DNA from: Moniliella sp. 'wahieum'
Taxonomy: Eukaryota
NCBI GenBank assembly: GCA_003971905.1
Contig: RSEE01000026.1
Span: 620,001 to 684,000, forward strand
Reading direction: 5' to 3'
DNA: 64,000 nucleotides
In this document: positions 5,214-53,985 of the stretch, one piece after another
Numbering within the stretch: the first letter of the stretch is position 1
Layout: every line of letters begins with the position of its first letter
Program-made: the position numbers and the translations under genes
Notes under the pieces: generated by a model
Told to the model about the DNA's origin: nothing
What the model saw: the letters and a program-made list of their open reading frames with translations, nothing else
Database searches by the model: none

Positions 5214-5703
5214 GGTGGGGGTGCATTGTAGATTGGACCGCCCACGGGTGCGTTTCTTTTGTCCTGTCCTATATAGTCTGGCTGAGAACCGTTAAGTCGA
5301 TAACCCGCAAATGGCACCAGCCGCTGCATATCTGGATCGATCACTTGAAATGTTCACCGCCCGTGCAACACCCATCACGTGATGGGGCAGAACCCTAGCG
5401 ACACAGGCGGCCATGCAACCTTATTCAGCTCAGCGTAGCCTTAGATCGGAGTCCAACCTGCCCTGGCGCGGCCACCCGCGCGCCCACACACGCCCCGTGC
5501 CGCGCCAACCCTACACGCAGCCCCGTGGATGGCGAGACGCACATCATGCATCATGCATGATGGCGCCTGACCACGCCTCGCCGCCTCGCCGCCTCGCCGC
5601 CTCCGCCGCCACCGCCGCACCCGCCTCGGCTGCCATTCAGCTTCCCACCATCTTCATCGCCACCATCCCCATCCTCCCCATCCCCCTTCTCATCCGCTCT
5701 TCC

Positions 5704-14136: not shown

Positions 14137-14827
14137 GGCGGGTTGGGGTGGGTGGTGGGCGGGGGGCATCGGAGCGGACAGCGGTGCGAAAAAGCAGGCA
14201 GGTTGAAAAGCAAAATAAAATCAAAAACAAAATAAACCGCTCGGGATAAAATTTCTGTCCTGGCGAGGGCCAGCATTAAGCATTGGCCATTGCATCATGC
14301 ATCATGCATCATGCACCACCCTTACCTGTGATGGCAGCGCACTCTTGGCGTGTGATGTGTTGGTCACGCACATATCACGCGTCTTGGCAGCCCAAAATTG
14401 ACGCGACCAGCCGCCCAAATTGACTCAATGCCCCCTGGCCGTGGCGCGGAGGCTCCCGAGCGGCGCACCAGGCACGGCGCCTGTGCGGGCAGTAGGGTTG
14501 GGGGAGCCGCGGCGCCCATGTGGCCGCATGGGGCCAGTGGCGCTGGGGTCGGCGCGGAGGGCACGGCAGCGACAGCCAGCCACACTGCCCGCGTGCCCCT
14601 CTGCTCGCCGCAGAGCGCGGCGGCGCTGATGCGCTGATGCTTCTCGGCGTCGATCACCGCACGCCTACCGTCGGCTTATATAGCGCATCCCTCCCACGCG
14701 CCCTCAGTAGTGTACGCCCAGCAGCTCCATCCACGGCTACTCCACCACCCCTACCACCACCACCACTACCACCCAGCACCACTACCACCACCCCTCCTCT
14801 ATATTCGAACCCCCCGTCTTCCTGTGC

Positions 14828-22320: not shown

Positions 22321-22393
22321 TGAGGATGCACGCGGGCGGGGTACGTCAGGGTCGGATCGGTTTGGATCTCGGCTCTGGCGTGGGACTTGGGCC

Positions 22394-22470
22394 TTGGGAG
22401 TTGGGAGTTGGGCCGTTGTGGGGTGGGGGGTTGGGAGTTGGGAGTTGGGAGTTGGGGGTTGGGGGTTGGG
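22394..22470 (+). repeat. G-rich heptamer repeat (TTGGGAG/TTGGGGG)n
   Basis: ttgggagttgggagttggg...gggggttgggagttgggagttgggagttgggggttgggggttggg. Confidence 0.8.
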
Positions 22471-23479
22471 ACGAAAAAGTGCTAGGACCTAGGCGTAACA
22501 ACGCTCCTCCCCACCCTCCGCGCCGCGTGTGCCTGTGCCTCCTGCTGCGCGGAGGTGCGCTGGGTCCGGGTCCGGCGCAGACTCCAACGCGAGCTCAGCT
22601 TGACACACAGAAAAACCAAAACGCAAAACGGACCCAGTAAGGCATTGAACCCAGGGCCCCTCTCCCCGCTTCGCTCCCCTCCCCTTCCAGTTTCGCTGGG
22701 ATGCCAGTCCCCAACCCATCCCATCTCAATCCACTCCCACTCCACTCCCACTCCCACTCCCATCTCAATCTCAACTCCATCTCAACCCAATCCAATTGGC
22801 TATTTGCAATCTACCTGTCCCCCCCCCCCGCCTGCCCACAGTACTGCATGCCTTATTCGAGCGGGGAAAGCGGCGGGTGCGAATCTTCCTGCCTGGGTAT
22901 GGATCGGAGATGGAATGGAAATAGGCACGCATTGCATGGTAGGATCGCGCCGATGCCCCACAGCCTGACTGAGTACTGACGTCCGGCCTGCCGGTGGGCA
23001 AGCCACGCCAAGGAATGAACGAAAATGAAAGAACGCTAGAACACTAGAACACTAGAAAAAGGGACAGTGGGTGCGTGGAAACGAATGGAACGAATGGAAC
23101 GAATGGGAATTATTTGCCTTTGTGAGTACGGCACTAGCCGCCTTGACCATGAGAAGAGACCGGGGGAGATGGGCGGGGGGGGGGAACAGCATAGCATAGA
23201 GCATAGTGGCGGCAAGGGATAGGACAGGACAGGACAGGACGGGGACGGGGACGGGACGGGACAGGATAGGCGCAGGAGAAGCGCACAAGATGGTCCCAGG
23301 TACGAGACAGGACGCAAGAGGAAGAGGGACATGCAGACACCGTCTTGTCTCCATCCTACCCTTGCCGCGCGGGGGGGAAGAGGGGAAAGAGAGCTAGGGG
23401 AGAGAGGGTACGAGTACGGTACGGGTACGGGTGAAGCACGTGAGCCAATGTGCGTGGGGGGGGAGAGGGGGGGCGTTTT

Positions 23480-25328
23480 TCACAAGCGGCGGAACTCCAG
23501 TACTGCCGAATGGCGTCGTCCAAATCTTTGGTGGTCGACCGTCTCTTGGGGCAAGCCCATGGAGCGCATAAACAGCACGCCCTGTTGCAATTCGGATTTT
23601 TGGCGTGCCTCGTCCCAGGCCAGTTCCTTGGCCATGATAGCCACCACGCGCGGCAAGGCTGCCGTGGCCGCGTCCACGTCGAGGAAGGAGAGGCGGGACC
23701 GCCGGGCCAAAAAGTCAGTGGCTGTCTGGGCATACTCGTTGCGGCACGCATATGCCACCTCGGCTTCGGTCACGGGGAAGTGCGGGTCGAGGCGGGACCG
23801 TTGCGGGCCGATTTGCCATCGGCGCAGTTCGCCCGACGAGCGCGCCTGCAGGCAATCAGCCGAGGCTTGCTCCAGCAACGTAAATGCGCGATCGCCATAG
23901 TTTTGCGCTAGGTACCGCGCCACGTCGGTATCAATGTTGTAGCGTTGGATCAGGTTGACGTAGAGGGTAGGATGCCACAGGTGGCGCCGAGCAAGCGCGT
24001 GTTTTCAGTCGCGCACGGCGCGGCTTTGGACGCCAAGCCGTACTCGCTCACGGCCCGGTCGACCGTTTGCTGTGCCATTTCGCGGTACGTGGTCCACTTG
24101 CCCCCGGCAATCGTGAGCAAGCCCGAAGGGGAGACGTTGATCATATGGTTGCGCACCAGCGACTGGGTATCTGCCGCGTCTGGGTCCTTGACCAACGGTC
24201 GCAAGCCTTTCCATGCCGAACGCACATGCTCGCGCGACAACTCGTACTCGGGCGCAATGTACTTGCGCACCTCGCCCAAAATAAACCCGATCTCCTCCTC
24301 GCTCGGCACGGGGTTCTGTTCAATCGGGTCCGGGTGGTCGGTGGTACCGGCAATGGTTTGGCCCTGCCAGGGCAAAAAGAAGATCACGCGTCCATCGCTG
24401 GTACGTGCGTCGAGCAAGCCCCGACCACGCGGACTAAAGTAGTCCGGCAGGGTAATGTGTACCCCGGAAGCGGGCTGCACAATCTCTGCTGTCGATGGTG
24501 CGTCCAGTTGGCGGATCGCGTCGGAAAACGGTCCGGTGGCATTGATCACGCCCTTGCACTTGATGTCCCATTCCTCGCCGGTAAACCGGTCGCGCACGCG
24601 CACGCCACGCACTTGGTCCTCTTCTTTGCCCGGTACAGCGGTCTTGTGCACGGCAACCACCTCGGTGTGGTTGGCGGCGACCGCACCATGGTGGATCGCC
24701 GTCAGCGCAATCATCACGTTCATCCGCGCATCGTTTTGCTGGCCATCGTAGTACACCACCGAGCCTGTCAGGCCGTCGTCCTTGAGCAGCGGCCAGGCCT
24801 CGAGCGTCGCCTTGCGCGTCAACACATACGATCCCGACATGTTTTGCGAGCCGGCGAGCAGGTCGTACATCTTCATCCCGGCGAAAAAGTAGGGGATTTG
24901 CCACCAGGTGTACACGGGCAACATGATCGGCAGCGGATCCGACAGGTAAGGCGCAATCTTGAGGAAAATGCGACGCTCATGCAACGCTTCACGCACCATC
25001 TTGTACTGGTCATAGTCCAAGTTGAACACGGCCTTTTCCAAGTACCGCACGCCGCCGTGGACCAGCTTGGTCGACTTGGAGCTGGTGCCCGAGGCGAAAT
25101 CGTCGCGCTCTACCAGGGCGACTTTGAGACCGCGCGTGACTGCATCGAGCAAGACCCCGGTCCCGGTCGCGCCGCCACCAATGACCACCAGGTCGTACTC
25201 GTCCGACTCGTCGCCCGGGACAAACGTCTTGCCCTTCTTGAGCGCATCGAGCATCTCGGCCCGCGACGGCGCCCGCCAATCGATGGGCTGGCCGAACGGC
25301 ACAGAGTCGAGTCAGCAGGCAGGCAGAT

Positions 25329-25649: not shown

Positions 25650-27799
25650 GCCGGCGGGGGTGGGGAGGCAGAGGAGGAGGAGGAGGAGAAGGCGAAAGAG
25701 AAGACGGAAGCAGCAAGGCAGGCCAGCAGGCAGAGGCAGAGCTTATAGGGGCGGTGGGCGTGCGAGCGGCGGCTGAGATGGGCGGGCGGAGGCCTGCGAG
25801 CAGCAGACGGGGGCTGTGCAGCCGCCGCCGCATCCCCGATCCCCGATCACCCGTTGCGCATTGCGCATTGCTGAGCCTCAGCGCTCAGGGCTCAGCCTGA
25901 GTGCTCCGCCACTGGCGCCGTGCCCCGCGGCTGCCCTGGCCCCCGCGTGCGCCCCCGCGCCCCACCCGGCACGCACCGACCGCGCCTGCTCGTTGCGGGG
26001 ATGCGCTGTTCAGGCTGAGGCCCATGCACACATGCCCCCGTGCTGCGTCCGCCCGTGGCCAGCGCAGGCCAGCGCGTCTTGTTCGTTACTAATCCCTCTA
26101 ATCGCCGCCGCCACCCACCAGCCCCCCCGCATTCGCCAGCCCCCTCCTCGTCTCCCGCTCGCCCCATCCGCCCAACGCACACAGCCACTGTCGCTAGTCC
26201 GTAGCTATAGTCACGCCTCCTGCCTCCTGCGTCCTGCCATGCCCCCAGGTGGCGCTGGCTGTGGCCGCGCCCATGGCCTCCCCTAGCTCGGCCATCGGCG
26301 CGTCTCCTGTCTCTGTCTTGCGCGGGAAGCTTCCTCCCATGTCCCAGGTGGGCAGCCCCCTAAGCACACGCGCCGCCCAGCCTCAGCCGAAGCATGCGGC
26401 ATGCCAGCAGCCACCTCACGCCTGCCTCGGAGATGCTCGATGTGTGATGTGTGATGCAATGCCGGGCGCACTGCGGAGCACAGTGTCTCGCCCCCGCCGG
26501 CGGCGCCGCGGCCCAGACACGCTCCCCCAGCAGCCCCCCGCACGCCCGCGCCGCGTGTTGCCGGGCGCCTGCGTTCCCACCGCTGTGGCCTGTGGGGGCA
26601 CGACGCAGTGCGCCTCCAGCGCCGTGTGACGTGTGGTGTGCGCATCGCACCACGTAACATGGAACACGATGAACGTACGTTGAACATGCACATTGAGCAC
26701 GTTGAGCGCTGAGCCTCAGCGCCTCAGCGCCTCAGTTAAGCGCAAGCGCTGAGAGTGTTACACGGTACGGCACGGAGGCGTTCCGGCGCTCCAGCGCTCC
26801 CACGCTTGTGTAGGCGCTGCGCCTGCCTCGGTCTCCGCCTCGGCTTGGAGGCGGCCGGAGGGGCTGGCGCTGCTGGGGAACGCAGGGAGCCGGTACTGGG
26901 CACCGATCGTGCGGCCGCTCGCCTCTCTCAAAACGCAGTCTTGCTTCAGCTGAAGCTGAAGGCTGAGAGGCTCAGCTTCTCTCTCATCTCCGCTTGAAGC
27001 TTGAGCGAGCCGCTGGTTGTGACAGACATGTGACCGATGACTCGGTCATCGAGTCATCGGTCATCGGTCATCCCTGGGTATCGAGTATCCGCGCGTCGTT
27101 GCTGCCTGTTCCTCAGGTGATGCAAACCATCTTGCGCGTAAGCCTGGTTGATTAATGATTAATGATTTCGCTCATCTCGGCCGGTGCGCGGCACACAACC
27201 TATATTTCCGGGGCTCCCGACCAACTCCCAGGGGTTACCGGTTACCATAGTTCACTACGACCTGGGCCAGCGCTAAGCAAAATGCACATTCAACGTTCAA
27301 CAGCGTAAGAAAGAATCATGATGCGATCCCACATGTCATGCATCAACATGGACAGGGAACGCACAACAGGGGTATGGGGGCAAACGCTTCGCTTGACAAA
27401 AAAGATAGACAAGTGCCTCCTCCAACCGCCCCGGGACAGCTGAAGGCAAAAAGGCCGTTGCAGTCCGGGTGTACGTCAAGGGCAAATGAAAAAACAAACA
27501 AAAACACATCAAGGAACAGGGTGATTGTCCTGCACAACAAAGTGGGCAAAGAAGAGTAGCAAGTCCATGAGTGGCACAGTTGCCTGAGAATGGGTGGCAC
27601 AGGGTGGTGGGTAGGAAGGATGAGGAAGGACGAGGAAACCAATGGAAAGGAAAGGGAATCAGGTGAAAGGAGAGGAACGGAGAGGAAAGGAGAGGAGAAA
27701 GGAAGAAACGATGGATTGGGAATAATGAGGTTCAGTTCCAAACTGTACGCTGTTGATGATCCTGTTGATGATCGCAATCAACCTAGGCAAGTGGGCCCT

Positions 27800-29076: not shown

Positions 29077-30058
29077 GCGGGGCAAGACGAGGGAGGGAAG
29101 CCGAGGCGATTGGTATACGGGGAGGCGGGGGAGAGGGATAGAGGAAGGGGGGGAGGTGGAGAGGAGAGGGTGAGGGTAGAGAGGAGTGGGTGGTGATGGC
29201 AGAGGTGGTAGCAGAGGTGGTGGCGGAGGTGGCGGCAGGAGGAGTTGAAGCATGGAGCACCGCCAGGACACGCCCCCCACCGCGCTGTTGCCAGCCAAAA
29301 ACTAACTCAACCCAACGTGCAACGGGTCTCCTAGTCATTCATTGGTCACGCATGTCCATCACCACCTTGTCACGCTGTCACCCTGTCGCCGACAAGCCAA
29401 TCGCCACCGATCGGCTCGACGCCACGTGGCCACTCTGGCTTCCCCCGCACTGGCCAACCTCGGTGCGCGTCCCTCGCTCCGGCCCACGTTCCGAGCCTGC
29501 CCTCCCTCGTTCCGCTCTCAGATATTCAGATCTCATCGACATCTCAGATCATCGATCACATGCAACCGATCATCGATCTCAGCGCCCCGGCGCTCTCAGC
29601 TTCAAGCTTCAACGTTTCAACAGCAGCATCATCGCTCGTCACGCGTCACGCGTCACTGCTCTCACGCGCCCCCGCCTCGCTTCTACCTATTCCTCTACCT
29701 GCACAGCACACACACGTCGGCCTTCTCCCGAGTCATGTCCAAACCTTATCCATCGGCTGCCAGAACAGAGGGTATGGTGATCTCAACTGAACCAACCGCC
29801 TCCTCGGGAAGCATCACCACCGCTATGCCCAGCCCGTCTTTCCTGTACTCATTTACTGTACTGGAGATAGCATCGGCGTGGCGACGGGTCCTCTATATGT
29901 AGGAACAGAGCAGGCGGCCATGACTCACACCTCTCCAGAGCGGTCGAGTCGACGCATTAATATTGGTATAGCGATAAAAAAGGGACAGCGCCCACGCGCA
30001 CCTGGCAAGAGTCTTCACGCACGAGTACGCATCTTGACGTCGACAGTGGCCGAGGCAC

Positions 30059-30737: not shown

Positions 30738-31288
30738 GGTAAACGGGGAGGTGGCGTGAGGGGAGGGAAACGACCGGGGTGCGGCGGCTTGGCGGCCCTT
30801 TTAAGGCTACGACGAGAACGAATGGCTGGGTCCTTCTCAGTCGATTTGGCCAGGGCGGCGCCGGGGCAGGTGCTGTGAGCTGCCTGTTGCCCAGGGTCCG
30901 CGCTTCCAAGGCCAAGGGGCAGGGCTGGTGCGTGAGTGCAAGCGTGCACAGCCTCCCTGATGCAGAGAGTGCGCACAGACCTCCACACACTGCCCCCTGG
31001 CCATAGGCTGTGCTCCAATGTTTGTAGACGCCACGTAGCCGCTGCTGCTTCGGCACAGACTGCCCCTGTGCCTACCTTCCAATCGCTGCTGCGTCCGAGC
31101 AGTGAGAACAGTGCTAGCCACCAGAACGCCCCGGTGCCGCGCCAAATAACGCATCACACACCGCCTGCCACACTGCCCGTGTACGAGCGATGCCCCAATC
31201 ACCATAGTGGAGCAGCCGAACGCAGCTGAACGCCGCTGAATATGCTGAATGTACCGCCTGGACGTGCGCACTAAGTACTAAATGCTGG

Positions 31289-31352
31289 TCACCGGTCATC
31301 GATCACTAGTCACTAGCTAGTAAGTCACTAGTCACTAGTCACTCAGTACTCA
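31289..31352. repeat. Mixed heptamer array TCA+palindromic tetramer
   Basis: TCA CCGG TCA TCGA TCA CTAG TCA CTAG ... TCA CTAG TCA CTAG TCA C TCA GTAC TCA. Confidence 0.9.
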
Positions 31353-32690
31353 CTATCACTAACCCCCGGGCACTCTCTTCCACCCACCCACCACCAACAC
31401 GGCGCGCTCCTTTGTCCTTCCAATGCCCTCCCTCTTGGTGTCTGCATGTGCTCGCGCTTGAAATCAGGCGCCCGGGCGCTGATAGCGCTGATAGCTATGA
31501 ATATATGAATCAGCAACAAGTGCATTCGGGCACTTGCAAATTGCATGAGGCTCCTGAGGCTCTCAGGGACAAGAGTGTTTTTACAGTCTGTGAACTTCAA
31601 GCTTCAAGCTTCACTAGCTTCACTGTTCGGTCAGACTCTTGTTGAATGGGTAGATTTTGGCTTGGCGTGGGTATTGCGCGCACGTGTACGTCCCCATCAG
31701 TAATGTAGTCCTCTCACCGTGGGTTCGCCCACGGTTCGCCGGATGATCGATGATCTCAGAGGGAGACCCAAGAATGTGAGTGGTGAATCTCTGGAGCAGA
31801 GTAGACCAATGCAATGGCGATGGTGGTGGGTGGGATGTCGGCGAAGCCTGAGTCGCTCAGGCCCAGGTCGATGCCTCATGCATAGGATGCAGCACACACC
31901 TCTGCCCCCGTGTGTAAACTGCTGCTCAAAAGCAAGGTTCTGTGACCTAAGAATACAGGGGTGTGCCTTTGGGCGGCGTCTACGATCGAAGATCGAGACC
32001 TGGGCGTGTGACGTCATAGCAAGGATGGACGCTGGGCAAGCGCGGGCGCCTGGGCAGGCTAGGCAGGGCAGGTAGGTGCAGGCCGTGGGTACTGCCCCTA
32101 CGTTGGCATCAAACGGAAGGCGGTGCGCTGCTGGTGGGGACAAGGGGGGCGAGCGGGGGCAGGGAGGGCGGATGACATGGACATACGATACGTGCGAGGC
32201 AGTTTTGCCTGGGATGTATGGCCACTGCGGCAGCCCCGCAGCAGGGCGCCAGTGTAGTGGCTCTTTCCCCAAGGCTTTGGGTGTGGTGGGGTTGGATGCG
32301 GGGGAGCCAAGACACTCGCTAAACGACGTGCATCGCACAGAGCCCAACCAGTCCAGCCCCCCCTCTATTGTCGTCCTGCCCCTCTCGCCTCGACCTCATC
32401 CCCTGCTCTTTTCCCCGCAGCACCCGATTCGCACCCGTGCCTGTTTCGTCACTCGGTCCCAGACGCCCCGTCGGCCCCCACCGGCCCTCTTTTCGCAGGG
32501 GAGCCCCAGCGCACAGCACGCCCACACACCCCAAGTTCACGACCATTGCGCCAATAATACCGCACCCCCTCCCTGCACATAGCCACCCTATATCCATAGC
32601 CCAGAGCCCTGTCTGCGTCAACGTTCACCACAGTCCCTGCCCACGCCTCCCCACTCTGATCGGCCTCCTCTGCCTCCTGCCTTCACCTTG

Positions 32691-34411: not shown

Positions 34412-36661
34412 GTTTGAGGATTGGCGAGAGAAATTGGCATTCCATCCCTGCGCCTCTCTGGCCTTCCTACTCTGCCGATGTTCCTTTCTCTTCCGCGGAG
34501 GTCCGTGACATGTGACACCGGATGCACGCCGTACCACAGAGGTATGCCCCTATGAGACGCTCCTTGGCTGCCAAGTCGAGCACGCTTTGCTGCCCAACCC
34601 AAGTCGGGCAAGCTCAGTCCTTGGTCCAACTCGAACCTGGCTTTGGGGTGGCCGCTATCGCCCGATACCTCGATCTTGGTTTTGGAACAGCGCAAGGCAA
34701 AGAACCAGGGCGGATGGGTGTGCCCGCAACGCCTAGTGCCTAATGCATCATGTGCATAATGTATCTGGGGATGGACGTGCCGGAGGCTCAGGCCTGACGC
34801 CCACAACATATAACATGCAATATGTAGGATGTAACATGTAGCACTCAGCACTCGCTATTCTCTCTTCCTTGCCACACTCCTCTTTGTGGCCTGGCGCTGT
34901 CGAGTGCGTCTCTGACACGGCTGGGAACATTCAGTCTCTAGGTGGTTGCACGACGTGGAAAAAATGAGGAAGCTGTGGGACCTGTGAGGCTCAGGCCTGA
35001 TGTCACGTGTCATGCATCATGGGGTTCCCCACGGCGGCCTGCGTGTCGTCTGGCGTGGATGGACAGCAAGCGGGGTGGTAGTGGTGTGCATCTGGTCCGG
35101 CTCGCGCCACGCGCCACGCGACGGAGGGGCTCGCATGATGCATGATGTGTGATGCATGATGGATGGTCGGGAGATTCTGGAGATGCAATCGCGCTGCGTT
35201 CGGCGGTCGGTAGGGATTGGGACGTCGATGGCGTGGATACGGTGCGGCCGGACCGGGGACTGGTATAGGTATAGGCTCCTGGAGCAGACGCAAACGACGC
35301 AAGAAACAGGGAGTGGGATGGGTATGAAAGGTGCGCGTTGCATCAGGCCCAGGAATCAGTTACTCAGTTACTACTAGTTGTTACTCAGGTGAGGACGGTG
35401 AGAGTACTCTGACTCTCAGGACTGAGCCAGCACTCAGCACTCGAGCCGGACTCAGCAGTACTCACTCACTCAGTACTCCATGGAGCCGACTTGCTGCGCA
35501 TCATTTGATGGATGGCACGGTCGATGGTCGATGGCTGGTTACGATTCTAATATGGTTGACGACGCTTGGCCTCTTGCTTTGCTCGGGGGCAGGTACCCTG
35601 GGGCATTCATACCATGTCGATCCATGTCCGTCGACGATCGTCCACCTCGTCGGCCCAGAGCCGATATTGTCAGCGCATTCAAGAACGGTGCCAGTGAGCG
35701 TTGAGAGCATGCTCACAACTCAGCCACTCGCCTCAGCCGCAACGCCGCCGCATCTCGCCGGTGCTGTGCATGGGGGGGACGAAACAGGACGGAACTGGCC
35801 GGGGGGGCGGAAGGTGCGGATGCGCGGACGAGCAGAGCCAGAGCAACCGGAGCAGGTCAGATCTCAGAGCAGGTCAGAGCAGGACAGGGCGCGGTGCAAA
35901 AGGCCGCTTCAGCATGCAGTGCTGCAGCAGCGCTCCAGCACAGCGCGCCTGCGCTGCGCCAGTGGTGGGTGGGTGTAGCAGATCCCCGTGATCAATGTTC
36001 GCTGTGGCCCCGTGCGTGGGTGGCAATGGACGATCGGTGGCCAAGCGTACTGCCGGTCTGCCCCGCCACTACCCACTAGCCACTACCATGGAATTCCGAG
36101 CACCCTGGTGTCAGATGCATGTCAGAGAGGTCGCTCCCATCGGGCATCACATGCATCACCCATCCCATCGCCATGCATCATCCTCCACATCGTCCACCAC
36201 GACGGCACAGGTGCCTGGACGTGGTCGCACTGTGCATGCATCCTGCTGCCTGCGGCATGCAACCCTTGCAGCGCCAGTCCACTCTGCTCCGACGGCCCAA
36301 TGGGCGGTGTGCCACGCCGGTGGCCACTTGCTGCCCCCACCCTTTACGGCCGGCGTGGCGTCCGCCAAGCGCTGCACAACCGCCCAGTTCCCGCCGCCCT
36401 CTGACCACACTGGCCCGCCCACTCACACTGCCCTTGTGCCACATCCTCGTGTTCAGGCGCTCACGAGCTCTCACTCCTGCCTCACTAGCGTCGCCTGGGC
36501 GCCGCGTTGGGCCTGCGCTTATAGCGTGTAGCTGCTGCCTAGCGCAAGTAGCCGACCCCCTTCGCCGCTTTCTTGCTCAACCACCACCACCGTCGTACGC
36601 GCTCCCCTACCTTCCTCCCCACACACTCGTTTCCCACCCACCACACTCTTTACCAGCAGCC

Positions 36662-38463: not shown

Positions 38464-38505
38464 TGATCGATGAACGTTGAACGTTGAACGTTGAACGTTG
38501 AACGT
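38464..38505. repeat. Heptamer array TGA-TCGA-(TGA-ACGT)5
   Basis: tgatcgatgaacgttgaacgttgaacgttgaacgttgaacgt. Confidence 0.95.
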
Positions 38506-39314: not shown

Positions 39315-41097
39315 GCGGGTATGGCCGGATTAGTCGGCGTTCAACGTTGAGCGTTCACTTTGCTGCACTGCATGTGAGTGTTTTGGAAAATCAATTCCTA
39401 TGCGTTTTAGACTTTTTCTGGTGCATATTCCTAGGATTGAGGATGGGAGGGAAGAGGATTTGGCGAGCTAGGGCTGCCGAGGAAAAGAGGTACAGGGGGC
39501 GATGGATTGCAAGGGGATACAAGGGTTGGAAGAAGGAACCAGAAAGGCCACAGCAGAGCAGCAAGAACGCCAGTGACAGATTCCCCACTCACCGGGCCAA
39601 CAACGGGGGGCGGGGGTCAGAATCGTGTGGGATTCAAGTTGAGGGTACGTTGACTCAAGTTGAACTCAACACTCAATGTTCATCTCAAGTAAATCACGCG
39701 CACTGTACCACATAACGCGCATTCCCACCCCTCGAACGTCCCGTTCTTGAATCCAAGCCGAAAGGGCTGCTTCAGCCCACACCGGAAACACATGATAAAG
39801 GCGATGTTGGGCTGCGGGCAATTTAAGGAGACGCGTGGGGGGATGGAGAACGATGAGCACGACTGCAGTCGACGCAGGGACGATGTGCCTCAGCCTCATC
39901 GATGAGGGAACTGAACGAAAAGCAGCGCACGTACCTCCTCGGACGACATTGTTTCTCAGAAGAAAAAGCAACAAAAGTTGGTTAGGAAGTGAGGCCTGCA
40001 ACGGCGGGTAGAGCTACGCGGCAAAGAAGCGGGGCGGCAGGGAGTATAAGGTGGAGGTGGGGGGGGTGCACGGGTAGATATGCCATGCAGGTGGGTGTAA
40101 TAGGCTGGTGTTGGACAAGCCAACGGCGAGTGGACACTGCTGCCGCTACCTAGATCATCAGTACCTAGTAACTTAAAGTGGACGCGTATATGTTCCAACA
40201 GTGGGGGACGAGGAGGCGCAAGAGGTAGATGGAAAAAGGTATGTTATGTAAGCACGCTGGCTCAAGGTTTCCCTGGGCTGAGCGAGCCTCAGCGCCACCT
40301 GAGGCCTCAGCGATGGACCGGTCAGTACTCAGTGGTCGGTGGTCAGCTGACAAAAGAGAGGCTGGGGCCTGCTGAGGCGCTCAGACCACCACCAGCTGCT
40401 TGGCAAAACTCAGTTATAGCGCTTCCAACCACCTCCACTTGGCTGATTGAACGTCGGTGGTAAGACTACGGGAGGAGAGGATTGAATATTGACGTTTGAC
40501 TATTGAGGCTGAGCTCGGCGTTCGGCCGAAGCCTGCCCTGTCGGCGCAAAAGCGGCGAGGGACATTGGTCAGCATGCGTGCACGGGACCGGCGGGGGGCA
40601 CACTGCCGCCTCGGCCGGGCTCGATACCCCGCATACATACCCCGTCCCATCATGTGATGTGCCCACTGCTCGCATCCATATCCGTATCCCATCCCCATCC
40701 CCATCCCCATCCCCATCCCAGCTTACTCTGGACTGTACAACCGTAAGTGGGCCGGTGGATGCGGTCGATGGATTGATGGCTAATCCCCGAAGCCAAGCAG
40801 ACCCACTGCCTCAGGCATCCATAGTCTTGCGGCCTGCCGGTGGTGGCAAGCAAACGCAAAGCCAAGAGCCAAAGCCAAACGTCATTTTATTAAGTTGCTT
40901 TAAATTCTTCGAACGGCGTTCTCGGCGTCTGGTTAGCCGAAGCACCACCAAATATATAATTGCCACACGCCGCTTTTGGTGTCCTTGGCACCCCCTGATT
41001 GCATCGCACCCTCTTACAACGCCACCACATCCCCCCCTCCCTGCTGTTGCATACGCCCACTTACGACCACGACCCATCCACGATAACGAGTTACGAC

Positions 41098-49681: not shown

Positions 49682-50850
49682 AGTCCAAAACAAGTTGATG
49701 GCGCCCTGGCGAGGTTCATGCATTGTTTACGGATCGTGTCGATCATGCAGCGGAGAGTTTGGATAAAGACACGTTGGACCTCGCCCTCCACCTCCGTATG
49801 TACGTTTAACGCGAGCGGTACCAAATTTGAGAGCGGGGCTCGTGGACCTCGGTGGGAACTTGCTTGGGAGATGCGGATTATCGGCGGTCGTGGATTCGGA
49901 TAAGATGTGCAAACTGGGGCAGGGCATTCATCGCATTGCCCTTCAGTAAAGCTAGTGAAGACGCCTCTTACTATCCTGACTGTACTGTACTCAGACCAAT
50001 TGCTTCGCAACCTGCTTCTTCGATCCGTGCAGTTCTACCAGGCTATCAAGTTGTGGGCGATGTGCTGGTCGAGATTAACGCTTTCCTCTCCATGGAGTTT
50101 CGATAAAGGGGGGGGGGACGAGAACACTCCCAACAGGATAAAAAGGGCGGGTACTTTGACGTGCTCATGAAGCTATCTGACGCGGACGCGCTTGACGGGT
50201 CGGTCACACACACATACCCACCGGCCGTGCATATTGCCCTGTTCTAGATCTTCCTTGAAGCTTGAATTGACACTTGACTCCTTTGTGTCTCTCTCCTTCT
50301 CAGATCAGATCTCATGCGTTGATTTATCGTGTGATTGTTTCTCCTTCCCCTCTGGTATATACGGCACCACTCAATGCAGCTGAATATACCGTCGGCATCC
50401 AAAGCAATATCGCTTCTTCACTACCCCTGATTGGGGGATGCACATGTCCCTTCTAGGCAGGTATAGTGCGTAGCACGTGCATGCACGATGCACCCAAGAG
50501 GTCATCGATTCTCTTGCCATCACTTTTGTTTTTGCCCTCACATGTCACATGCTCACATGTCCATGTCACACAGAGTGCAAGTGGAGTCTGACGATCTGAC
50601 GCCATCGCTGAAGCACAACATATTCTTGTCTTGCACCAGCACCCAACCCAAGGTGGGCGCGTTGCAGCTGTGCGGGACCCACAGCGTTCATTTGCGCTCC
50701 ATCAGGAACGCCCACATGTTATCATCGTTCAACAATGATTAAAGAACCGGCTGCAGAGAAAGAAGAGGAGAACGTGGCGGCGCACAGAAGGGTGGGGACC
50801 AGCTGTAGATATAGTCAGCTACAGGTAGTATGGCATCTGTCTGCATCAGG

Positions 50851-50913
50851 GGAGCATTCGGAGAGCATTCGGAGCATTCGGAACATTCGGGGCATTCGGG
50901 GCATTCGGAGCAT
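50851..50913. repeat. 9-bp minisatellite (GRRCATTCG)n
   Basis: ggagcattcg gagagcattc ggagcattcg gaacattcgg ggcattcggg gcattcggag cat. Confidence 0.85.
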
Positions 50914-51656
50914 CATTGTTCACAAGAATGTAGAGAGGCAGGTTACGCAGGGAGGGACCGTGGTATACAAAGAATGCCATGGCTGGATCGTATATACTGG
51001 AAAGTGTTGGTGCACGAGAGGAAACCGTAACGCCCACGGTACGCCTCAAGGAGAGAAGAAGTTTTCCTGTTTCTTTTGTTCGAGCAATTGGACTTCGACA
51101 AGAATTAAGAACACCAGCAAAAGTGCCACGGATGCATTTTCCTTACCATGTAACAGGCAACAGCTATTCTTTCCTTTGGCGGCGATGGTGATGGTGATGA
51201 TGAGACGCGCGAATACTATGCCACCAAAACGGCTATCAAAAACAAGATGTTTGAGCACTGGAAAGAACTTACTGACGAGTACATTGCATCATTTACTATC
51301 ATTAATTGCACACTGATGCACTCAGTCTGATGCATCTGATGGCGCCTCGTGGGACTGAAGGGGAGACAGTGTAACAGTCGGAGCTATAAAACGAGGGAGG
51401 AAACAGAAGGCATCGGGCAGAGAACAGAGAACAGAGAACAGAGAACAGAAGGAAAAGGAAAGGGAAGAGCGAAACACAGGATGCAGAATTGGAAATTTGA
51501 AGCCAGCTTATAGTATTTAGTCATTTGGTGACAGAGAGACTTGCCTGAGGCCTGAGGCTCAGGCCTGAAGCCCTGAGCCTGACCGAGCGCCGACGGCCGC
51601 TCTGTATACCATTTTTGCCATGGTCGCGCCGCATCATGGCACTACCCCCACGTGCT

Positions 51657-52412: not shown

Positions 52413-52438
52413 TCAAGCTTCAAGCTTCAAGCTTCAAG
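52413..52438. repeat. Heptamer array (TCA-AGCT)3-TCA-AG
   Basis: tcaagcttcaagcttcaagcttcaag. Confidence 0.9.
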
Positions 52439-53985
52439 CACCGAAGCTTGAACAAGTTTTTCGGGACGAATTAATTGGTTCACATGTGGGGATCCCATGT
52501 CCCGTGTCCCATCTCTCCGATCTCGTATCTGAGTCTCAGATCTCAGATGTCTCTCGTGGTGTACCTGTGGGTACAGTCCAATGGCGGCCGTCGGGGGAAA
52601 CGATTGGAGCAAGGGGGCAGTGTCACGTGTGCCAAGCGCGGAAATGAAACGTGAAAAATGAAAAGCGATCAACGGTTGGAGGTTAGACGGTTTAACGTTT
52701 AACATTGAAAAGGGCATCCAACGGAGCCGCTAGCGACTCAACTGAACTGGTGCTGGCTGAGTGCTGGGTACTGGTACTGCATGCTGCGCATTACCTAAGG
52801 TGCCTGCTTGGAAGGGCGGGTGGGTCGTGTGCCAGGTATGGTGGAGGGTACTACAGCCTCGAAGTATATAGTGCGGCGCAACAATGGGTACTGGGTGTGC
52901 AGCACATGCCTCCCCACACGACCATCCCCACATGTTGCCAAGAAGGCTTGTGGGGGGTTGGGTGCAGAGTGCTGAGGCGCTCAGGCGAGCCACTCAGGCC
53001 GCGGATGTGATGGCATTCTGAAGGTGATACGGGTGACATGGAACCTGTGGGGCACGACGGCAGGAGGGCAGCCGGCGTGGGCGCGCGGGACAGTGTCGGG
53101 ACGCAGCTTGGCAGCCGGCAGCTCTGCGCGAGCAGAAGCGAGGCAGGGCGAGTGTCGATCATTTGCGGATCATCCATCCTCCATCCTCTACCTCTCCTCC
53201 ACCTTACCCCGGCTGGCCTGTGTACGCACACGATCGGCTGCCGATCTGGATGAACGACCGAACGGCCTGTCAACATGTCAACGTCCCTCTGCCCCTTGAA
53301 GCTTCAAGCTTCACGCGCTTCACGCACCGCCGGGCCTGCTGCCTCGTCTCCCCCACAGCCAGGCACAGTTCGCGCGTCTTCCCGCACACCGCATACACAG
53401 CCCCCGTCGGAGCACCCACCCAGTCTGACCATTCATCGATATCCCATCTCGCGGCACAACCGGTTTGCAGGCCCGATAGCAGAAACGGGAAAGAGTGACC
53501 CGGTGACGCCAGTCGGTGTTTGTCCTTGGCCTCCTCCTCACTTGCTGCGCGACTGAGTGCTGAGCGCCAGGGACGAGGTGAGCCAGGTGTGTGATGATAA
53601 CCGCTCAGCTTGAGCGCTGAGCCGACGCTCTCACCATTCACATATCGGCCAGCGAGGGCGCCAGCAGGCCCACCAGAGCGCAACCCACTCTACTCTTCCC
53701 ACAGTTTTCATGCCTCCTTCTGCCGATGCCGATTGCGCCACGACCCAAACATTTGAATCGTAGGCATCTCTGCCGTCGATATCTGTGACGTGTGGCCGTG
53801 GAGACTTCTATCTCTCAGCTGGTGGTCACCCCCTCACCTTTTCTGGCTCATCCCACCATCCCCTCCTTGTCCCCGAACCCACCATATAGGCTACCTACCG
53901 TCACGGGTTGCCTTGCACTTTCTTTTCTTTCAACCACACACTCGTTTTGTCTCGCCAAGCTCTCATCGTCTTCAGTGTGTGCACC

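Follow-up and report, generated by a model that had tools for sequence, protein, structure and literature searches.

Palindromic 7-bp units at T-N-A sites copy their flanking dinucleotides and may be transposon excision scars in a basidiomycete genome

The window analysed here, a stretch of 64 kb, has a G+C content of about 60%, is rich in short tandem repeats and carries long open reading frames (ORFs) for ordinary eukaryotic proteins. Among these proteins are a tRNA pseudouridine synthase, the mitochondrial glycerol-3-phosphate dehydrogenase, a protein kinase, RRN3, VIT1, Frag1, Kelch proteins, a RING finger protein and pirin. Relatives of the dehydrogenase ORF (23950-25302, minus strand) reach 88-90% identity; the nearest named one, from Jaminaea rosea, stands at 71% (one protein), and other basidiomycetes come next. 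Judged by sequence, the window is nuclear DNA of a basidiomycete, probably a yeast-like one from the Ustilaginomycotina. The tandem repeats include a 77-bp unit at 1574-1808 (3.0 copies, 96% matches), which is unrelated to the 7-bp units described below, and an imperfect TGGGAGT/TGGGACT heptamer array at 22381-22472 with about 13 non-palindromic copies, an ordinary G-rich minisatellite that we mention for contrast.

A pattern that spans the whole window, with a unit made up of a T-N-A trinucleotide, a 4-bp palindrome and the same T-N-A again at a period of 7, reaches its local peak in the array at 31289-31352. This array reads GG/TCA-CCGG-TCA-TCGA-TCA-CTAG-TCA/CT, then CTAGCTAGTAAG, then TCA-CTAG-TCA-CTAG-TCA-C-TCA-GTAC-TCA, with slashes setting off the flanking dinucleotides here and below. 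The sequence-only reading had singled out this site as several different palindromes strung on one TCA register, and the string was confirmed as TCA-CCGG-TCA-TCGA-TCA-CTAG-TCA-CTAG-(CTAGTAAG)-TCA-CTAG-TCA-CTAG-TCA-C-TCA-GTAC-TCA. The in-register arrangement of the units held up as well, but the true register proved to be T-N-A rather than TCA, with palindromic cores in 37 of 62 TCA frames, 26 of 48 TGA frames, 4 of 6 TTA frames and 4 of 7 TAA frames. Switches from one core to another in the same register had also been listed at 38464, 29602, 31597, 40318 and 53297; the sequences there are as described, except that the register slips at 29602, 31597 and 53297, where the last 'core' is 5-6 nt long.

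Across the whole window, T-N-A pairs 7 bp apart (any N) enclosed a 4-bp palindrome in 88 of 170 cases, compared with a simulated mean of 4.4 of 64.3 and a maximum of 10 in thirty third-order Markov simulations. When the same N was required on both sides, 71 of 123 cores were palindromic, and identical N predominated over complementary N, for which 11 of 21 frames held a palindrome. T-N-A frames alone showed the excess, the best other trinucleotide being GTA (3 of 15), and the effect was specific to a core of 4 nt, as palindromes were found in 24/89, 4/116, 4/95 and 0/99 of the cores of 2, 6, 8 and 10 nt, respectively. Same-N T-N-A pairs numbered 123 at distance 7 versus 19-57 at each other distance from 3 to 21, and from the counts at neighbouring distances we estimated that about 31 of the 123 same-N frames are background. 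The units formed 73 chains in the 64 kb, 63 of them single (10 bp), 7 double, 2 triple and 1 with five units, and 15 of the 16 possible 4-bp palindromes were present among the cores. Long ORFs were avoided: stop-to-stop ORFs of at least 200 aa held 11 of the 71 same-N units, leaving 60 outside, though such ORFs cover 61% of the window. The non-ORF DNA, about 25 kb, thus carried 58 same-N chains.

As a control we used 80 other eukaryotic loci, mostly fungal and amounting to 635 kb, which were fetched from metagenomes via the dehydrogenase. There, 32 of 503 same-N frames were palindromic; this 6.4% equals the 1 in 16 expected by chance, indicating that the pattern belongs to the lineage of the window and not to fungal DNA generally. 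With a best protein identity of 74%, these loci are too distant for intergenic alignment, and their use was limited to that of a negative control. In the window itself, 23 of the 52 non-palindromic same-N frames had a core one substitution from a palindrome, which is 44% versus about 40% for random non-palindromic 4-mers. Since one-substitution cores stand at the background level, intermediates of decay are close to absent. Eight of the 52 frames were plain non-palindromic tandem duplications of a 7-mer at T-N-A.

Each palindrome is, as a rule, made of the two bases next to the T-N-A frame together with their reverse complement. With a unit written as ab-TNA-XYY'X'-TNA-cd, XY equalled cd in 21 of the 71 same-N units and Y'X' equalled ab in 19, while both agreements held in 20 units and neither in 11. 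The rule fitted 60 of these 71 units, versus 11.8 on average and at most 22 in 2000 permutations of the flanks among units, and 40 of the 50 singletons, versus 8.2 (maximum 17) with shuffled flanks. Period-7 identity continued to the left of the chains in 36 and 33 of 58 cases at positions -1 and -2 and fell to 17 of 58 at -3; on the right it held in 38 and 37 of 58 at the first two positions and then in 21. Because the identity ends sharply 2 nt beyond the T-N-A, the unit is a 7-mer and not a repeat of random phase. In the 10 multi-unit chains the outer flanks, taken as rc(ab)+ab or cd+rc(cd) (rc, reverse complement), predicted 24 of 25 cores, and the 15 adjacent core pairs in arrays comprised 12 with the same core and 3 with different cores.

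These counts bear on what the sequence-only reading had made of the array. Its argument that one palindrome is not turned into another through point mutation agrees with the same-N frames, in which half-palindromic cores, one substitution away from symmetry, are not as common as palindromic ones (23 versus 71), and each unit does look like one discrete 7-bp event, as it had supposed. A symmetry-enforcing step had also been postulated; a symmetry-making step is what the data support, acting through copying templated by the flank (60 of 71 units) rather than through correction of existing units. Likewise, of the proposed tape-like record the discrete events remain. The cores are set by the two outer flanks (24 of 25), and being copied from these they fix the content of the 'tape' without any independent information.

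The rule can be followed through individual arrays. At 31289-31352, the left flank GG gives CCGG as rc(GG)+GG, the right flank CT gives CTAG as CT+rc(CT), and the AC that precedes GTAC (31343) gives this core as rc(AC)+AC; TCGA at 31296 is the sole core of this array outside the rule and belongs to the 11 of 71 units that break it. Just upstream, the single unit AC/TAA-GTAC-TAA (31272-31281) has the core rc(AC)+AC. The fit is exact in the five-unit array GA/TGA-TCGA-TGA-(ACGT-TGA)x4/AC (38464-38501), in which TCGA is rc(GA)+GA and the four ACGT cores are AC+rc(AC), and in the three-unit array TCA-(AGCT-TCA)x3/AG (52413-52436) all cores are AG+rc(AG) from the right flank. At 31597-31624, CT/TCA-AGCT-TCA-AGCT-TCA, with AGCT as rc(CT)+CT, is followed by CTTCACT+AG+CTTCACT; here, from 31609, the 7-mer CTTCACT is doubled around the 2-nt spacer AG, the reverse complement of the end of the 7-mer. 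The same architecture recurs at 53297-53324, where CT/TGA-AGCT-TCA-AGCT-TCA is followed by CTTCACG+CG+CTTCACG, the duplication of CTTCACG starting at 53309 with the 2-nt palindromic filler CG. One non-coding stretch (29526-29655) holds a cluster of units, namely TCA-GATC-TCA, TCA-TCGA-TCA, CT/TCA-AGCT-TCA and CG/TCA-CGCG-TCA-CGCG-TCA. Further examples are the single unit TCA-GTAC-TCA/GT (40322-40331), with the core GT+rc(GT), and the two-unit arrays CA/TCA-TGCA-TCA-TGCA-TGA/TG (5544-5560, within a long ORF-like frame), CA/TCA-TGCA-TCA-TGCA-TCA/TG (14295-14311) and TGA-TTAA-TGA-TTAA-TGA/TT (27149-27165).

The preference for T-N-A also emerged from a search that did not presuppose it. Strings of the form S5 + rc(last 2 of S5) + S5 gave 148 matches; S5 was T.A.. 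in 80 of them, with 11 for the next pattern, and the first T was present in 80 of 83 cases. Whole nnTNAnn 7-mers were directly repeated, with a gap of 0, in 28 cases. They were repeated with a gap of 1 in 7 cases, the filler being the complement of a flank base in 6, and with a gap of 2 in 9 cases, the filler being the reverse complement of a flank dinucleotide in 6. Simulated sequences contained at most 0.2 nnTNAnn repeats per class, and 0.05 for gaps 0-2.

Several other short motifs were noted. Perfect 10-bp palindromes in TCA..TGA frames (11 palindromic of 21) form a minority class that the flank rule does not explain. To this class belongs the 15-mer GAGGCTCAGGCCTGA, which has three exact copies (34783-34797, 34986-35000 and 51554-51568) and contains the perfect 10-bp palindrome TCAGGCCTGA; with up to 3 mismatches it gave 12 matches versus 3.4 expected. 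As the surroundings of its copies do not align, it is a short stand-alone motif, which the rule likewise leaves unexplained. Non-coding segments at 25877-25896, 26713-26735, 40290-40375 and 51540-51600 are rich in short repeats that contain CTCAG/CTGAG, such as GCCTCAGC in 2.9 copies and CTCAGCG in 2.9 copies, which may represent a second family of short motifs or a favoured context of the T-N-A process. Just upstream of the array at 31289-31352, a period-10 repeat of GCAGCTGAAC (2.9 copies, 31212-31240) keeps TGA in register around non-palindromic fillers. TTGCGCA at 25854-25871 (2.6 copies) is the 6-bp palindrome TGCGCA plus one base, with a period of 7 and centred on A-N-T, an exception to the T-N-A rule.

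We consider it fairly probable that the units were left behind as footprints by the excision of a cut-and-paste DNA transposon with T-N-A as its target and a target site duplication (TSD) of 7 bp, nnTNAnn. Insertion would take place at a target cut with a 7-bp stagger around T-N-A and would duplicate it, both 7-mer copies would stay when the element excises, and the broken flanks would pass through hairpins. Where a hairpin opens 2 nt off its tip, the final two bases of the flank would be extended by their reverse complement (P nucleotides), so that each flank would end in four self-complementary nucleotides, cd d'c' on the left and b'a' ab on the right. End joining would usually keep the palindromic 4-nt tail of one side and trim the matching 2 nt opposite, which would give ab-TNA-cd-d'c'-TNA-cd or, in mirror image, ab-TNA-b'a'-ab-TNA-cd. 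Either product is 7 bp longer than the original site and has a 4-bp palindrome between two identical T-N-A. Judged from the unit counts, this 'add 2, trim 2' outcome is the dominant one. A tail kept untrimmed would leave the forms with 1-2 nt between two 7-mers, and plain retention of both copies would leave the 7-mer tandem duplications. Hairpins of this kind have precedents, as PMC5499845 describes hAT, Transib and MULE transposases as well as RAG as forming hairpins on flanking DNA, with footprints left by end joining.

Every such event would recreate T-N-A sites, one of them inside a perfectly symmetric 7-mer, and through these sites re-use (or slippage) would extend scars into arrays. Arrays can thus grow by further events at the recreated sites, presumably through repeated visits of the enzyme, and for the arrays with identical neighbouring cores (12 of 15 pairs) slippage may be an alternative route of growth. 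A strict rule allows only two core types per array, which matches the data except for TCGA. The segment GA/TGA-ACGT-ACGT-TGA/AC at 26670-26686 is the only case of two adjoining 4-bp palindromes between identical T-N-A. Its ACGT fits the right flank, and the left-flank tail would be TCGA; as this expected tail is absent, the segment is a misfit to a form in which both hairpin tails are kept, and it is possibly a duplicated right-flank core.

Other geometries of the break were tried and rejected. A Transib-like 5-bp duplication (TNAnn plus 2 P nucleotides) would arrive at an identical principal product, but it accounts neither for the whole 7-mers with 1-2 complementary fillers nor for the scarcity of fillers copied from the T-N-A end (12 cases, nearly all ambiguous). 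A 3-bp TNA duplication combined with 2+2 bases from transposon ends is ruled out by the flank rule and the 7-mer repeats. Decayed perfect 14-mers cannot lie behind the one-sided flanks, as the cores have hardly decayed and each flank matches in about half of the units.

We searched the window for the element itself. Among its 150 longest stop-to-stop ORFs (at least 155 aa), Pfam returned housekeeping domains only and no transposase domain, a hAT domain included. A search of the window for terminal inverted repeats bounded by duplications of 3, 5 or 7 bp that include T-N-A likewise turned up no element; the matches obtained were array-to-array coincidences. A TAA-flanked segment of 949 bp at 50076-51030 has 12-bp imperfect inverted ends and lies in the part of the window with the lowest GC (0.51), a resemblance that by estimate is within chance. 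As neither a transposase nor an intact element is present in the window, the transposon itself is something we infer. The break-maker would be a transposase, most likely hAT-like, for example of the basidiomycete hAT7 lineage. An enzyme that forms hairpins, from a hAT7-like element that is still alive or has been domesticated, might even be at work today and cut promoter T-N-A sites repeatedly, so that the scars would not be relics, a version to which we give a small chance.

Any 7-bp staggered break with hairpin or turn-around ends yields the same sequence rule, and such breaks could also stem from an endogenous, non-mobile activity, a domesticated transposase or another nuclease, which would make 7-bp staggered breaks at T-N-A, to be filled in with a 2-nt turn-around or a hairpin, at sites that a transposon never occupied. 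Since an enzyme of this kind would leave identical marks, we keep it as the main rival; the absence of element and transposase from the 64 kb and the very high density of the same-N chains (58 in the roughly 25 kb outside ORFs) speak in its favour. It is nevertheless unlikely in our view, as we know of no endogenous process that produces 7-bp staggered, hairpin-ended breaks at T-N-A, and in the portion of PMC5499845 available to us flank hairpins are documented for transposases and RAG only. Replication slippage could have grown the units as 7-bp microsatellites, their palindromy being restored by hairpin-templated (quasi-palindrome) correction, in line with the 12 of 15 identical adjacent core pairs, the abundance of short tandem repeats in the window and the plain 7-mer tandem duplications at T-N-A among the non-palindromic frames (8 of 52). 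However, the repeat continues into one flank alone in 32 of 50 singletons (17 right, 15 left), and the commonest total extension past the T-N-A frames is 2 nt (20 of 58 same-N chains), from which it follows that most units fall short of a full 7-bp duplication. Moreover, the boundaries of the repeats are phase-locked to T-N-A +/- 2, and one-substitution cores show no excess (23 of 52). A template switch or inverted copy predicts TCA..TGA, whereas 71 same-N palindromic units were seen versus 11 with complementary N. A 6-bp palindrome is too short for self-folding. On these grounds slippage with correction appears quite improbable.

Known footprint chemistry offers a further route to a 4-bp palindrome between direct repeats. 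PIF/Harbinger-type excision would combine a 3-bp T-N-A duplication with two bases from each inverted terminal repeat, and both the use of T-N-A, a known kind of 3-bp target for this superfamily, and the standing of the flanking T-N-A as direct repeats agree with it. Such footprints would have cores that are constant within a family, but the cores track their local flanks (60 of 71) and take 15 of the 16 possible palindromes, and the duplicated segment measures 7 bp, not 3, which makes this origin highly improbable. Selection could instead have gathered cis-regulatory palindromes, as sites of dimeric factors, in promoters. The concentration of the units outside long ORFs would suit this, and we take the ACGT and TGCA cores to resemble known factor sites. 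Nearly all palindromes occur, however, and the neighbouring dinucleotide dictates the core; selection also leaves the identical T-N-A pairs and the 7-mer duplications with complementary fillers unaccounted for, and we find hardly any room for it as the source of the units.

Footprints left by transposon excision are familiar from several superfamilies, with which the scars proposed here can be compared. The canonical Tc1/mariner footprint consists of TA, bases of the element end and TA again. It shares with the units a duplicated target around a short, often palindromic insert, but its insert is constant and comes from the transposon ends, whereas in the window it is the host flank that supplies the insert, which differs from flank to flank. 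With hAT footprints (Ac/Ds and Hermes), as set out in PMC5873905 and PMC5499845, the units share the retention of both copies of the target duplication, a palindromic filler that is the reverse complement of the bases at the break, and slight one-side trimming with few favoured outcomes. The TSD deduced for the window is 7 bp with a central T-N-A, unlike the 8 bp of hAT elements, nTnnnnAn or nnnTAnnn (PMC10512250), and in contrast to hAT footprints the window scars are chained in arrays, are dominated by a single outcome (add 2, trim 2) and are accompanied by no element in the window.

Seven-base-pair duplications have been reported in basidiomycetes. PMC12730594 describes hAT7 families of Puccinia and Melampsora with a 7-bp TSD, a length that is also made by Kyakuja from Laccaria. 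The likeness to hAT7 consists of a basidiomycete host, a TSD of 7 bp (deduced from the scars in our case) and a superfamily with flank hairpins. The hosts named there belong to Pucciniomycotina and Agaricomycotina, whereas the window is Ustilaginomycotina-like, and no transposase homologous to those of hAT7 or Kyakuja was found in the window. In Ustilago maydis, '10-bp repeats' have been called footprints of transposable elements, a view for which PMC4081816 cites Laurie et al. 2012 and Schirawski et al. 2010. These repeats are found in a related subphylum and, going by their description and not by motif, are similarly numerous, small and intergenic, with the same proposed origin; their stated length of 10 bp is exactly that of TNA+4+TNA. 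In the literature searched, to which most subscription journals do not belong, we found no statement of the TNA-N4-TNA motif or of the flank rule and no match to strings of the TCANNNNTCA type, and the motif is absent from PMC8120014, PMC5106213 and PMC9603552. Most likely, the units add one more fungal lineage to those with hairpin-type excision footprints, marks of a familiar kind that are here unusually dense and regular.

If the excision reading is correct, the window would document, densely and in a natural setting, how a transposon was excised and hairpin ends were joined in a basidiomycete, with dozens of events per 64 kb and, by extrapolation, on the order of 10^4 per fungal-sized genome. 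The scars would then yield both the target consensus (nnTNAnn) and the spectrum of repair outcomes without experiment, and a stretch that holds no copy of the transposon would still have been heavily shaped by it. The units bring palindromic 6-mers into promoters and may thereby supply regulatory variation and strain markers. For the small intergenic repeats of smut fungi, a simple and testable rule would be on offer. Should the less likely version with an active enzyme be true, a single enzyme would have written about 2-3% of the non-coding DNA and more than one tenth of the T-N-A sites there. Each 7-bp addition would then be an orderable, lineage-specific mark that creates new palindromic protein-binding sites, and the '10-bp repeats' of smut fungi would also be explained by one precise rule.
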